Made by a program: the position numbers and the translations under genes. From Patellaria atrata CBS 101060 (lineage: Eukaryota): DNA of 64,000 bases. Below, piece after piece: positions 18,911-38,557 of this stretch. Numbering within the stretch: the first letter of the stretch is position 1; each line of letters starts with the position of its first letter. The notes under the pieces are model-generated. The model was not told the DNA's origin, ran no database searches, and worked only from the letters and a program-made list of their open reading frames with translations. The stretch is from contig MU006090.1 in NCBI GenBank assembly GCA_010093705.1, positions 2,224,022 through 2,288,021 of the forward strand, given 5' to 3'.

Positions 18911-20454
18911 ATGCCTCCTCCTCCTCCTCCTCCACCACCTCCACCTCCTCCGCCACCGATGCCTGGCTTTGGGGCAGGTCCACCTCCTCCACCGCCGATG
19001 CCTGGTTTTGGGGGGGGACCACCTCCGCCTCCGCCTCCAGGAGGTTTACCAGCAAAACCACCAGCAGCTGCTGTCAAAGGAAGAGTGCGTTCATATCAAA
19101 TCAGATGGAGAGTGATCGGAAATGTGAAGCTAATTTATCTCAGGGCGCACTTTTAGGAGATATTCAAAAAGGGGCTAGGTTAAAGAGCGTACAAACAAAC
19201 GATCGGTCAGCACCACAAGTCGGAAAAGCACTGGATGGTCCCTCAAAACCCGCAGTTGGAGGCGCACCGCCAGTGCCTGGGATGGCGCCGAAACCGCCAG
19301 GGGGATTAGTACCGCCTGTACCGGGAGGAGGAACTAATAGAGGGAGGAGCAATAGCGATTCTGGAGATGCTTCAAGAGATAGTATGGCCGGTGCGCCGCA
19401 ACTGGGAGGACTGTTTGCCGGAGGAATGCCTAAGTTGCGGAAATCGGGTGGAGTGAACACAGGAGCAGACTCACATTCGCCATACCTTTCGGATCCAGAA
19501 ACGTCTCAGTCGTTCACGCCGAAACCGCCGACTGGGAGCGCGCCGAGACCACCGATGGCGCCCAAAGTACCAACATCTACTCCCCCAAGGCCTCCGCCGA
19601 CCGTCCCTGGAGGTGCGTCGCATCCGATAATATCAAACCTAAAGAACAACCTTCGACCGTCATCAATCGCTTCGACAGCATCCGCACCCGATATCCCCAC
19701 CACGAAACCGAAACCGCCACCACCAATAGGCAAAAAACCGCCCATACCTCCCCCAGCATCTCGAAAGCCATCTGGTCTCGCACCCCCACCGCCTCTACCA
19801 GCATCAGCCTCACCACCTGTCCCTCCACCACCACCGCCATCTTCCGCGCCTGCTCCCCCACCAATTCCACCCTCATCAGCTCCACGACCGCCCCCATCAC
19901 GCTCAACAGCCCCTCCTCCGCCGGTATCAGTAGCCCTAAACGGCCACCCCCCATCCCTCGCCGAACAAGCCGCCCGCAACGCCTTCGGCCGCTCATCCCC
20001 TAGCATTGCACCGCCCCCGCCGCCGGTCTCTCCTCCACGATCCCCGGCTCCAGTGCCTCCAGCACCCCCGTCCTCAGCACCAAGACCACCCCCCGCAACT
20101 GTCGTATCCGCACCCCCTCCCCCGCCATCCACGGCACCAAGGCCGCCACCGCAATTAGCCCCCAGCCCGCCGCAGTCGAGACAGCAGAGCCAGGCGCCGG
20201 TGAGGTCCATGTTAGATCCGAGCGCTTATACGCTTACGAATGGTGGGGCGTCCGCGGGGAGGGGTCAGGGGATGATGAGTGGGGCAGGAGGAGTAGGAGC
20301 AGGGAAGGCAGGACTATTGGTGATCCATGATTTGAGGTGGCGGTTTCAGGATGAGAGCCAGTTGCCCAAACCGAGGGAGTTCATGGGAGGGCAGAAGAGG
20401 TATAGGGCGGGGAGGGGTAGTAGTGTTCCTTTGGACTTGAGTTTGTTTGAGTAA
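18911..20454 (+). CDS. VRP1: Verprolin / WIP actin-assembly protein
   Basis: N-terminal polyproline. WH2 motif GRGALLGDIQKGARLKSVQTNDRS is formed across intron 19085-19143, followed by LGGLFAGGMPKLRK. C-terminal RWRFQDESQLPKPREF..YRAGRGSSVPL. Confidence 0.92.
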
Positions 20455-21595
20455 AGAGGGGAGTTGGACGGGTTCATGTGGAAGGGGAGAAGGATGAGTT
20501 CGTGATAGATAATAGTTGATGGTGGATGAGGAGTCAAACGAGTTCCTTTGTGTTTCGGTGTTTGGCAAAAGGTAACGGATATGCTGTAAAAGACCATGGA
20601 TAGAGACTACTTGATGCTTCATTGCTACGTTCTACTACCTTCCTTCTGTTAACGCAGGTGCGTTGACCCAGGGCCTGCCATCTTCATCAAACCTATAATG
20701 AAGCCGTGGTGCCACGAACCTTCAATAGACTGATTGAAAAGCTCTCTTTCGTTTGGTAGTTACAAAACCATATTAACTTGTTCCGTTGTGCGTGTCTCGG
20801 TTGTGCCTATTAATACGCTGCTGTGAGGGTATGTTGGCACATGGTTGGCAATAATCATTACAGCTTACAAACACTGGGCCTTACGATCTGTCATATTAGT
20901 CCAAGCGACAGTATTTCAGCCCTGGTGACAATGATACAGGTGCCCATAAGGTATCAGGGCCAAATGACAGCCATCTCATGAAGACAGCAGCGAGTCTCAA
21001 CTACAAAAGGGATCATAATAATAGTCAACATAGTACCCCAGTAGTACGGATTATGATAACTAGAAGGGTGGAACCAAGAGGCAAGGGTTTGAGAATAAAG
21101 TTGAGAGATTTTATCGTGAGATAGCTAGACTTATCTTAAATCAAAACCCGCGCCAAATAATCCACGTTGTAGAAAGTAAAACTCAGAAGCTCGCCCATTT
21201 CCTATAGCATCCAAGACCTGTCTAAACTCCTTTCGCACCGTCGCTATGCAAAGTATTAACTTCACCAAGCCCCATCGAACCGAAGATCCAAGAAGAACCC
21301 AGATAAGTATGTATGTTGAAGTGAGATGTGCCCATAAGCGAAATATGACCAAGCAAAGAAGCAAAGAATATGTCGTAAAATTCAGGTCACGGAAAAACCA
21401 GGCTGATATGGATCGATAATATTAATATTGGTGTAGTAGTGTCGAGACCGGTTCGTACATAGCGAAGATGTTCGGAAGCGTCATGGAAGAAATGTTCGAG
21501 ACGAGATTTTAGAAAGATAGTGAAGATTGTCACCGGCCATGATAATCTACGATGATTCGGATAAGGTCATCCTAGGAGTCCTCGGTCGCGAGACC

Positions 21596-33542: not shown

Positions 33543-33822
33543 CCCGGCTCCCGTAATTTTTGCGTTTGGCGCCACCCGACACCAAGTGGCTTACAAAGAT
33601 CAGAACCTAAATCATAACAGCAGCCAGAGCAGCACTGCCAAGTCTCAAGGGTCTTAACTTGACCTGAATCATCATGTTTTAAAAAGTTAGAACGTCAGCC
33701 ACTACTTCTGATTTCGCAGAAAGCTGTCCCTGTGACTTCCGTCCCCCTAAAGCTAGCTCATCGAGAAATTGATTCTTCGTTTATCCAGGAGATTGGTCTC
33801 ATCAGGTAGGACAACTGTGATA

Positions 33823-36237
33823 ATGGAGGCTGAAATTAGAGAACAAATACCCAATATCGACCCAATCCTTACCGATTACTCGGTTGGTTACTTGACACAT
33901 GCATCCAATACATATACATCCGATACGGACCCTAACGGCCCTTCACCGTTAGATGACGCAGCAGCCAGTGTACAAGCTCTGCTAGTCTCCGCTTCAGGTG
34001 ATTACTCTCCCGAAAACGAGATAAGCATTCGAAACTTGGTGGAGAAGTTCATTTCAAAGTTGAATGCTGCGAATGGCGTCGATGGCGAGAAACGTCAGAT
34101 GGCCCCTTCTGCAAAGAAGTTGGATCAAACCATTAATGTTGCGTCCCAAAGGAATATATCATCAACTCTTGGACTTACAGGCGGAAATGTTGATCTCGAA
34201 TCAGCAAACACGCGGAAAGTGGAATCACGAGTGGACCGTAAGAAACTGGAGAAAGCAGAACGCAAAATCAGAGCGAAGCAGGACCGCAAGGTCATGAAGA
34301 ATGTTGAATATGAAGCATCTCGTCTGCTTAATCAGACTGATGAGACTCAGTCATACGAGGAATTCTTCATGGCTGTCAATCCCTTACAATTAGGTGCTGA
34401 CGCAAACACGAAGAGTAAAGATATCAAGGTTGACGGAATCGATGTCTCAATATCTGGCAAGAGAATCCTCAGCGATACAAGCTTGACGCTAGCATACGGG
34501 AGACGTTACGGCTTGGTAGGTCAAAATGGTATAGGTAAATCTACTCTTCTGCGTGCGCTTAGTCGACGAGAAGTCGCTATCCCCACCCACATTTCCATTC
34601 TTCACGTTGAACAAGAGGTGTGTGGGACTATCTTGATATCATTCTATAGCCTACTTACTATTGATACAGATCACTGGGGATGATACACCAGCACTGCAAG
34701 CCGTGCTAGATGCAGACGTGTGGAGAAAACATCTTCTAAAGGAGCAAGACGTGAGAAAAACAAGCATCCATTACCCGTACAGTAACTAATGTGTACCAAG
34801 AAAATCTCCAAGGAGTTGGCGGAAATCGAAGTGGAGCGTTCGTCAATGGCAGATACATCTGTAGACGCTGCCCGGCTAGATAAACAACGTGAAGGGTTGG
34901 ACATCACACTCAGTGATATTCACGCAAAACTTTCAGAGATGGAGTCTGATAAAGCAGAATCTCGAGCCGCAAGTATTTTGGCAGGCTTGGGTTTCTCCCC
35001 TGAACGCCAACAGTTCGCAACAAAGACATTCTCTGGAGGCTGGAGGATGAGATTGGCCCTCGCGCGTGCCCTGTTTTGTGAACCTGATCTGCTACTTCTC
35101 GACGGTAATGTTAATTTCCCTCTTGATCATGACCCCTCCATCTAACTCTGCGTAGAACCGTCGAACATGTTGGACGTCCCTTCAATCACCTTCTTATCTA
35201 ACTACCTTCAAGGCTATCCGAGTACAGTTCTGGTAGTCTCCCATGACAGGGCTTTTCTGAATGAAGTGGCAACCGATATCATCCACCAGCACTCGGAGCG
35301 TCTCGACTATTACAAAGGAGCCAACTTTGATTCCTTCTACGCCACCAAGGAAGAACGACGAAAGACTGCAAAGCGAGAGTATGAGAATCAAATGGCGCAA
35401 AGAGCGCACCTTCAAGCATTTATCGACAAATTTCGCTACAATGCCGCCAAATCCTCAGAAGCACAGTCGAGAATCAAAAAGCTGGAAAAAATGCCGGTTC
35501 TTGAGGCCCCTGAAAGTGAATACACAGTTCATTTCAAGTTCCCGGAAGTAGAGAAGCTCTCCCCTCCTATCATCCAAATGACAGATGTTTCATTCGGATA
35601 TACGAAAGACAAACCGCTGTTACGGCATGTCGACTTGGACGTTCAACTGGATTCTAGGATTGGTATTGTAGGACCCAACGGAGCCGGTAAGACCACGGCG
35701 CTTAAGCTTCTCATTGGTGCTCTTCAGCCCACGTCAGGTTTGATCTCACAGAACCCCCGGCTTCGGGTCGGCTTCTTTGCCCAACATCACGTCGATGGCC
35801 TCGATCTAAATGCTAGCGCAGTAGGCTTCATGGCAGCTAAGTATCCAGGCCGATCGGACGAAGAATATCGCCGGCACCTGGGAGCATTTGGTATCACGGG
35901 CATGACCGGTCTTCAAAAGATGGAATTGCTCTCAGGAGGGCAGAAATCGCGCGTTGCGTTTGCTTGTCTTTCTTTGACAAACCCACACATACTGGTACTC
36001 GATGAACCGTCGAATCATTTGGACATCGAAGCTATGGACGCATTGTCTACTGCACTGCAGCAATTCCAGGGAGGTGTTTTGATGGTAAGCCACGACGTGA
36101 CGATGCTGCAGAACGTTTGTACCAGTTTATGGGTGTGCGACAACGGTACAATTGAGCATTTTGATGGCACCGTGAAGGATTACAAGCGTAGAATCACAGC
36201 TCAAGCGAATGCTGCAGGCGTGGTACAAGCTCACTAG
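33823..36237 (+). CDS. GCN20: ABC-F translational regulator Gcn20 (ABCF3)
   Basis: Two ABC domains (GQNGIGKST / FSGGWRMRL / LLLLDEPSN and GPNGAGKTT / LSGGQKSRV / LVLDEPSNHLD) with no TM segments. Introns 34618-34669, 34751-34800 and 35105-35155. Confidence 0.93.
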
Positions 36238-36520: not shown

Positions 36521-36728
36521 CCTGGGAAGGCGCTCGGTCTGCTCCTTGAACCCAGAACTTGTTGACCTCTCCCGTCGCGGAAACGAGAAAGTGATCCTCA
36601 CCAAGCACGATCAACCTGCACCACCATTGAACTCCTACTTCTTTGTATTCACCTTCAGATGATTCTCCATTACTGACTCTTCTTCTTTTCAGCCAAAACT
36701 CCATATTTCAAATGGTGTAGGCATCCTC

Positions 36729-38557
36729 TTGACCAGCAACGACACGCTCCTCAATTGCCAAGCCTCTGAACAATTACACGCAGCTGCAGACGTCCTTTCC
36801 CGAGTACCTCTATCTAAATCCTTCACCTTGTCGCAGACACGAGACTCAAGTCGCGGCTCGTCCGTATCAGTCACTCATTTAAGTTCTCGCCCGCATAGCT
36901 ACGAACGTGAAACACTCGATCCTCTCTTTCTCGCAACCGCAGCTGAATCTGCGTCGTCTTCCCACGTATTCACCAGCGTTGACTCGGCTTCACCTCCTCC
37001 ATTCTCCTCCCTTTACTTCCCCCCTAAGGATTTAGGTAGTGCACCGCACAATCTAGTCGTCACAGGCTGTGGTACCGACACTTTACCTGCTTTTGCGCCA
37101 GCTCCCCCGTTTACGGAATCGTCTTCTGCAACCGCAGCAGCAGTCGCAGAAACCAAGGCGGCTCTCCCTCAAGATACAAAAGACGGATCGTCAAGTAAAG
37201 ACTTAGACGACGGAGAACCACCACCGCCGTACACCGAAGGCTCTAGTCCGTTAGAATCCTTTACATACGTCATGGCAACTGCGGGAGGACCTGCAAGCAT
37301 TATCACGCAAGTTCAACAGGGAGGAGCCCAACCCATAAACTCTCTTGCCGGTAGGATCATATCAATTAGCGAGCATGTTAAATAGGGTCTCGTTCTAACA
37401 TCTTAACTTAGGTGGCGTTGATGAGAACATAACTCTCGATCTACGGTAATATTCCACTGCGGAAGTTCCAACCTTGCATGGCTAATGATCACAGCGGCAC
37501 TCGATTTACTCTATCTCGAGATGAACTCCTCACTCTTCCGGAGTTCGTATTACTCTCGTTATTTCCCAACGGTTTGCTCCCGGATGGCCATATGAATTCA
37601 TACCACGACGGGGATGTGTACCCCGTAGATGTTAGTACTGATCCAATTACCCATACCCCCGATAATTTCAATCCCCCTTCGGCTATCACACTCATTCGTG
37701 TTACATTATCCAACTCTTCATTATACTTATCTGACACACTATTTTCTTCCCAGTATGACCCCAATTCGCTGCAATACATGCTGGAATTCTTCCGCAATGT
37801 AGCCCAAACCATCCCTAATTCACCCCCGTCTCCATCCCAGGATCAGGGTCACGGGGAAGCCGTCCCAATTGAACCCATGCACGGTTCTGCAAGGGATATG
37901 CTCCAGGACCGAGCTGGCATCATCGTGCTCCGGGAGGATCTTGACTTCTATGCCATACCTCCAAGAAGAGACATTGAGCAGACGGAAATGATCGAAGTGA
38001 AGCGTGCGGCGGGTAAAGCGCTTCTACGGCAAGATGGGATTTTCTCCGGGCTAAGAAAAAGCGAGGAGCCGGGGACGACTGAGCAACACTTGATAGAGAT
38101 GTTGACAGCTGGGTAAGGGAATTCCTATCTGATAAGAGAAGAGAGTGCAGAGCACATGTGGCTAATCTATTACCGCTCCAGAGGCTTCAATCATGATGAT
38201 TCTTGGGGTCATCGTGCAGGCGAACCGAACAAAGCTGTCATTTGCAGCATTGCACTAGCTCGGCTACGAACGGACATCAAGGGGAACGACCTCGCCAACA
38301 GCAACGCAGTTGGGATGGCCCAAAAATTGCTACTCTTCTGGCGCAAGCCTGCAAGAAGGTGTTGGTGGGAAGGTGTAGAGTTGGATAATGTGGAGGGAGT
38401 AGAGGGCAAACTGAAAGTCTGGATCAGGAGAGTTTGGACGCTTGAGATGGTGAGTTTTACAAAGGAATCCCTTTCTCTCTTGAGATTCCCTCCGTCACGA
38501 GGAAGAAAAGAGCACGGACTGATACTTTACCCGCAGAGCGTTATCGGCTTGCGTTAG
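36729..38557 (+). CDS. WHI2: Whi2-like stress/nutrient regulator (BTB-like); first in-frame ATG at 37272 with an open upstream extension
   Basis: SIITQVQQGG, LRGTRFTLSRDELLTLPEFVLLSLFPNG, IIVLREDLDFY, KLLLFWRKPARRCWW and KVWIRRVWTLEMSVIGLR. Introns 37351-37411, about 37446-37494, 37631-37753, about 38113-38181 and 38450-38536. Confidence 0.88.

Follow-up and report, generated by a model that had tools for sequence, protein, structure and literature searches.

Use of near-cognate start codons has been reported for Neurospora crassa cpc-1 (Ivanov et al. 2017, PMC5487733). According to that report, cpc-1 and its Pezizomycotina homologues carry a conserved AUG-free in-frame extension with near-cognate starts in optimal context, the identity of which follows phylogeny, together with an upstream uORF and a link to amino-acid signaling. 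The WHI2 locus analyzed here resembles cpc-1 in each of these respects. There are also differences: cpc-1 uses several near-cognate codons and has two strong-context uORFs, one of them inhibitory (PMC5487733), whereas WHI2 appears to have one dominant start, mostly UUG, and one short uORF in weak context, with no uORF between the two starts and with a PPxY motif added. The term Whi2 is absent from the main text of PMC5487733.

Whi2 is labeled a BTB/POZ protein in published papers and is described in Neurospora and Magnaporthe as a regulator of TOR, cell fusion, endocytosis, and mitophagy; the Neurospora papers take it as a protein of 297 to 298 aa (PMC6987382, PMC4184795). Human KCTD11 is likewise a BTB protein, can replace yeast Whi2 in TORC1 suppression, and has a reported upstream AUU start (PMC6566181, PMC6126876). 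Its 39-aa extension completes the BTB domain, whereas the fungal Whi2 extension precedes the core and carries linear motifs; because its authors, in these reports, did not infer homology beyond the BTB domain, we regard KCTD11 as a parallel and not as a case of demonstrated shared ancestry. Mammalian C/EBP resembles WHI2 in combining a short uORF with alternative in-frame starts that give long and short isoforms, the ratio of which can follow eIF2-alpha phosphorylation (PMC5487733). Rsp5 adaptors with PY motifs (CreD/Rod1) are comparable to the predicted long Whi2 in having PPxY in a low-complexity region with lysines nearby (PMC8399174). Unlike CreD/Rod1, Whi2 has no arrestin domain, its PPxY would be present in the non-AUG isoform alone, and its ligase binding is predicted.

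The literature searched, including PMC6566181, PMC8295519, PMC5487733, PMC6987382, PMC9141721, PMC4184795, PMC8399174, PMC5800702, and PMC6126876, holds no description of this Whi2 extension and no match to the extension peptide motif. As far as searched, a non-AUG extension is new for Whi2.

The WHI2 locus of Patellaria atrata

The window analyzed is a stretch of 64,000 nt from Patellaria atrata CBS 101060 (contig MU006090.1), and all coordinates are window positions (Table 1). WHI2 takes its name from the database labels of its homologues (general stress response protein Whi2 or WHI2-like) and is single-copy in genome G000 by the search made; overall identity of the core is 66 to 89% in alignment A1. 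Because a search against Pfam and PDB sequences gave no match, the BTB fold of Whi2 is taken from papers. The short form, from ATG 37272, has 298 aa (33.0 kDa), and the long form, from TTG 36828, would have 446 aa (48.4 kDa). The best database match (P0001, labeled Patellaria atrata and “partial”) is 100% identical over the matched part and starts without Met, within the extension. It retains the third and fifth introns, which are stop-free and multiples of three in length, as coding; intron-free homologues do not. Upstream of WHI2 is an ABCF3/GCN20-type gene (33757-36237), also found upstream in 9 of 45 loci, all of the window's clade, and an S-adenosylhomocysteine hydrolase gene follows downstream on the same strand (39421 onward). 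Gcn20 is a co-activator of Gcn2.

Table 1. Features of the WHI2 locus (window positions)
Feature	Position	Strand	Evidence
uORF of two codons (Met-Val, then stop); weak context with C at -3; lies 116 nt before TTG	36712..36720	+	Shared ATG column
Putative near-cognate start (TTG 36828-36830; context C-A-C-C; next codon Ser)	36824..36833	+	Conserved column and 47 loci
N-terminal extension, 148 codons, Met-free, 15.4 kDa, rich in Ser/Pro/Ala/Thr	36828..37271	+	Homologous proteins, dN/dS, ATG depletion
PPPFSSLYF motif (PPxF type)	36993..37019	+	P56, P57, F59, and S61 invariant in 21-row alignment A3
AETKAALP..TK..SSK block with K110, K118, and K124 of the long form	37146..37199	+	In A3, invariant K118; 90% or more for K110 and K124
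E-PPPPY, PPxY motif, 14 codons before the AUG	37215..37232	+	Present in homologous proteins
AUG start of the short form, G at -3, G at +4	37272..37274	+	Met invariant in A1 and A3
WHI2 core coding region	37272..38557	+	GT-AG introns give one open product, in agreement with intron-free homologues
WHI2 introns (five, GT-AG)	37351-37411, 37446-37494, 37631-37753, 38113-38181, 38450-38536	+	

Between 36712 and 37272 (560 nt), ATG is absent from all plus-strand frames. A stop at 36660-36662 precedes the open WHI2 frame, which runs from 36663 to 37385. An earlier note on this DNA had claimed an ATG-free stretch of about 550 nt, a WHI2 frame without a stop back to 36660, protein-like peptides that include E-PPPPY, and three near-cognate codons in the WHI2 frame (TTG 36729, ACG 36744, and TTG 36828), and on all of these points its reading holds. 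Its figure of 8 to 9 expected ATGs assumed uniform bases and is too high: mononucleotide composition predicts 5.9 and dinucleotide composition 2.3. Because an out-of-frame ATG count of zero, given the encoded peptide, has a probability of 0.11 in this genome alone, and because a longer ATG-free gap (654 nt at 19555-20209, the longest of the window) is found in an ordinary proline-rich coding frame, the gap in a single genome is modest and only suggestive, and the case depends on orthologues. The frame that contains the longest gap (19402-20460, plus strand) is very proline-rich and resembles a verprolin/WIP C terminus.

Conservation of the extension, its start, and the uORF

An extension query matched 412 proteins among 7,999 scored, of which the best 120 are listed; Leotiomycete-like and Sordariales extension queries matched 185 and 196 proteins, respectively, and a profile search with the extension matched 191 representatives. 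The named matches include Dothideomycetes, Lecanoromycetes, Leotiomycetes, Sordariomycetes (Sordaria, Trichoderma, and Xylaria), and Eurotiomycetes (Chaetothyriales and Onygenales); the extension is present in two Sordaria proteins. Among the best matches listed for the extension searches, there is no yeast, Pezizomycete, or Aspergillus name. At the nucleotide level, the best 80 of 123 loci were taken together with the window; removal of 12 loci without the anchor and of 9 duplicates left 60, of which 49 had at least 520 nt upstream.

A near-cognate codon opens the frame to the AUG in 47 of these 49 loci (TTG 34, GTG 7, ACG 4, and CTG 2), the four ACG starts being the weakest, as they rest on a chosen motif and have a TTG or CTG two codons further on. 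The start was assigned by motif in 45 of the 49 loci; in another two, a CTG or GTG opens a shorter extension. When loci were thinned to 35 at less than 75% identity, 26 TTG, 4 GTG, 4 ACG, and 1 CTG remained. Codon identity follows the tree, changing by clade but always one base from AUG, and position -3 is a purine in all 47 loci (A 44, G 3). In the column of TTG 36828, the 31 rows that encode Leu-Ser comprise 29 TTG, 1 CTC, and 1 TTA, whereas the same rows contain no TTG and 1 CTG among the 89 codons of three control Leu columns; the context in these rows is C at -4 in 30 of 31 and A at -3 in 29 of 31. The 55 open codons before TTG 36828 show no conservation in the alignment. This comparison establishes the position of the start: conservation begins at TTG 36828, which is the predicted start of the long WHI2 form.

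Two loci are broken, one by an in-frame stop (L042) and one by a frameshift (L076); P0381, a close relative, reads through the region of that frameshift. L004, removed as a duplicate, has a frameshift that is absent from its duplicates. In the lineage of L036, L074, and L076, the extension is much shorter, with a CTG or GTG start a few codons before the PPPF motif.

Comparison of the loci also establishes coding constraint on the extension and exclusion of AUG from it. Pooled dN/dS (18 non-overlapping pairs, Nei-Gojobori simple counting, some pairs saturated) is 0.19 for the extension, 0.06 for the 22 codons that follow the AUG, and 0.75 for up to 40 codons before the start, and the extension gives 0 to 0.33 across all 18 pairs, with dS up to saturation. 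The last 45 residues of the extension nearly match the core in conservation. ATG occurs once in 19,908 nt (45 extensions), against 82.8 ± 7.8 expected under synonymous redraw (minimum of 62 in 300 draws), and the control CAT is not depleted (236 observed versus 204 expected). At the protein level, 1 of 416 anchored proteins, a fused model, has an internal Met no further than 100 residues from the AUG. A test of whether indels keep frame (multiples of three in 39 of 89 versus 19 of 68) was discarded as uninformative, because the DNA aligner splits gaps. The AUG at 37272 is itself conserved in context in the 47 loci (-3: G 37, C 8, A 2; +4: G in 45). Both starts appear to be used, because the removal of AUGs from the other frames is consistent with ribosomes scanning across the extension until they reach the conserved AUG.

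These results modify the earlier note in part. Its extension of about 180 codons is real coding sequence, but its length is 148 codons from TTG 36828. Among its near-cognate candidates, TTG 36828 stands, conserved and in the good context ascribed to it; TTG 36729 and ACG 36744 were rejected as main starts, having T and G at -3 and lying outside the conserved region. The alignment of WHI2 5' regions that it had proposed as a check finds the open frame kept in 47 of 49 loci, and the stops or frameshifts that it had named as counterevidence are confined to the other two. With TTG in 29 of 31 rows against 0 of 89 control codons, codon switching between clades, dN/dS of 0.19, and one ATG where about 83 were expected, its proposal of a conserved PPxY-bearing extension with non-AUG initiation is strongly supported.

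The PPxY motif is present in all 120 listed homologues and in 416 of 416 anchored proteins, counts that are biased upward because the search queries contained the motif; a second PPxY occurs in 205 of 398 proteins, and PPxF occurs in 386 of 398. K110, K118, and K124 are candidate ubiquitin acceptors. One gene of this genome has three WW matches, all in a single frame, with HECT-type sequence after them, as in Rsp5-type ligases. The PPxY of long Whi2 would most likely dock an Rsp5/Nedd4-type ligase. Phosphosites S103-S111 of Aspergillus nidulans AN10545 were set aside as irrelevant to the extension because they fit the numbering of the short form, and the supplement searched contains no AN10545 rows.

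RNAalifold gave no consensus pairs, and 80 nt of the window fold no better than shuffles (z = +1.4). A 4- to 5-bp hairpin about 27 nt after the TTG (about 36857-36871) is paired in 79% of cells but was rejected, its covariation not being above that of shuffles (83 to 240 of 500).

Comparison likewise establishes conservation of the uORF. Within the window's clade, 10 of 12 rows have an ATG in the column of ATG 36712, with diverging flanks. An upstream ATG is present in 43 of 45 loci, the nearest at a median of 107 nt above the start with a median length of 4 codons, and 42 of these uORFs stop before the start. The nearest uORF has at most 6 codons in 24 of 37 cases, versus 5.6 ± 2.2 in 200 shuffles. 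ATG density per kb is 0 at 0 to 30 nt above the start, 17 at 90 to 120 nt, 4.8 at 150 to 200 nt, and 21 to 24 beyond 300 nt. In the set of 33 thinned loci, an ATG lies no more than 180 nt upstream in 28, of which 23 have a uORF of at most 6 codons, and the other 5 loci have no ATG in that range; 29 of the 44 upstream ATGs in these loci open uORFs of at most 6 codons and 38 have a pyrimidine at -3, compared with 25 and 36, respectively, of 99 ATGs in an opposite-strand control (the p values ignore kinship). These counts lean toward selection of the WHI2 uORF for a regulatory role, with the caveat that a general filter on leaders also leaves short, weak uORFs. GCN4/cpc-1-type control would involve an optimal context at the uORF1 AUG, where WHI2 has a pyrimidine at -3 in 38 of 44 cases, and a downstream inhibitory AUG uORF, which the single ATG in 19,908 nt of extensions does not provide; under such control, the inhibitory part would have to fall to the WHI2 UUG itself. 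Just above the uORF (36673-36693), a branch-like CTGAC, a pyrimidine tract, and CAG could be a 5' UTR intron acceptor. As a source of an in-frame AUG, this site was rejected: no upstream ATG joins in frame, and by eye it is not obviously conserved.

Alternative readings and fused gene models

The extension would begin at an ordinary AUG if an upstream AUG were spliced into frame, for example ATG 36712 via an intron at 36715-36836, as the earlier note had considered, and four GT-AG joins from ATG 36712 do yield an open frame in the window. However, no consensus branch site was found in these four joins; of 43 loci, only 3 have GT after the upstream ATG and 2 have AG at the corresponding acceptor; and the splice 36715-36836 would remove the invariant TTG-TC. 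Two sequencing runs compared with the window behaved as DNA contigs without joints; both come from one study, possibly the source of this DNA, and they speak neither for nor against the join. Nor does the acceptor-like site at 36693 give any upstream ATG an in-frame join. Three intron-free orthologue contigs (L002, L007, and L010) look like spliced transcripts because all introns are missing. Their open frames span 467, 483, and 456 codons, respectively, and a stop precedes the TTG by 24, 39, and 14 codons. From the upstream ATG through the TTG, L002 and genomic L005 are collinear. Each of the three contigs keeps the TTG and none contains an in-frame ATG, which argues against splicing. The orthologues thus do not appear to uphold this join, and we consider it very unlikely. 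We think it similarly improbable that the functional protein is mainly or exclusively the long UUG form, with the AUG merely encoding an internal Met. Conservation of the last 45 extension residues close to that of the core would fit such a reading, and out-of-frame AUGs could be purged on other grounds, such as decay; but these AUGs are purged over the entire extension, as scanning would predict, the Met at 37272 never varies and has G at +4 in 45 of 47 loci, and tagged N. crassa WHI-2 was reported near 32 kDa on a blot (PMC4184795).

Less probable still is conservation of the extension as an RNA or DNA signal, or as a decaying relic, without useful translation. The two broken loci (L042 and L076) would be in line with it, and the literature searched yielded no direct evidence of extension peptides, but dN/dS is 0 to 0.33 in each of the 18 pairs, the frame is kept over several fungal classes, and no consensus RNA structure was found. 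The last alternative, that WHI2 is truly fused to the upstream GCN20/ABCF3 gene, is the one to which we give the least credence. It is the arrangement in many database models, Dothideomycete ABC-Whi2 fusions of about 1,220 aa being common, and GCN20 does precede WHI2 in 9 of 45 loci. Yet GCN20 has its own stop (36235-36237), the fusion junctions vary between models, the partner varies by lineage (dehydrogenase, hydroxylase, kinase, WD40, or G-patch), and the intron-free contigs contain WHI2 alone, with stops upstream. Of the best 120 of 412 homologues, 72 exceed 700 aa, and many are fusions to unrelated, lineage-specific upstream genes. Lineage-varying fusions are the pattern to be expected where a gene caller finds no ATG. 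Sordariomycete and Onygenales Whi2 models (P0161-P0305) are misnamed as dipeptidyl-peptidase III, peroxin 20, or G-patch protein, apparently through names inherited from fused neighbors.

Predicted Whi2 isoforms and their possible roles

On this comparative evidence, we propose, with a probability of about 0.85, that WHI2 mRNA has two in-frame starts and that leaky scanning gives a minor UUG-initiated isoform of 446 aa with PPxY and a major AUG-initiated isoform of 298 aa. A widely conserved WHI2 non-AUG extension of the cpc-1 kind is very probably real. Most scanning ribosomes would pass the weak-context two-codon uORF at 36712, and a minority would initiate at UUG 36828 in optimal context, giving the 446-aa Whi2 with a Met-Ser N terminus. 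The remaining ribosomes would scan 444 nt free of AUG to AUG 37272 and make the 298-aa form. The long form, with PPxY and nearby conserved lysines, may then dock an Rsp5/Nedd4-type ligase, which would either ubiquitinate long Whi2 or be brought by it to the complex that Whi2 forms with the Psr phosphatase at the cell periphery. Long Whi2 would accordingly be short-lived or a minority adaptor subunit; the latter option would suit N. crassa whi-2 because of its reported cell-periphery location and endocytosis defect (PMC6987382).

Published observations bear on the expected amount of the long form. Near-cognate output of cpc-1 was reported to be less than 1% of that of AUG in vivo (PMC5487733). 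In N. crassa, WHI-2 with an internal HA tag was expressed under about 1.5 kb of native upstream DNA, and its band lay “very close” to the 32.2 kDa predicted (PMC4184795); any long form there would accordingly be minor or unstable. A Pccg-1-driven whi-2-gfp, apparently of the 297-aa form, shifted the endocytosis profile of the mutant towards wild type (PMC6987382). Yeast Whi2 protein increases in low amino acids (PMC6126876), a finding that lends plausibility to translational control of Whi2.

A more tentative extension, which we consider doubtful though possible, is that the UUG works together with the weak uORF as a translational switch linking Gcn2 signaling to TORC1 via isoform choice. With abundant ternary complex, ribosomes that scan or re-initiate would use the UUG, and PPxY subunits would recruit Rsp5 to Whi2-Psr, so that Whi2 would act as a HECT-ligase adaptor or be degraded. 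In amino-acid starvation, eIF2-alpha phosphorylation or altered start stringency would shift the ratio, and TORC1 inhibition and endocytosis would be tuned.

A non-AUG start would explain a common annotation error, seen as partial models and false fusions to neighbors, by which many public gene models are affected. WHI2 would be a clean case of a single dominant UUG start kept over several fungal classes, and Whi2 constructs that start at the AUG would omit one isoform. Through its candidate ligase-docking motif, a hidden conserved isoform would provide a connection, open to experiment, with the endocytosis phenotype and with the response of Whi2 levels to amino acids. If the switch is true, Gcn2 would be joined to TORC1 by the isoforms of one gene across filamentous ascomycetes.
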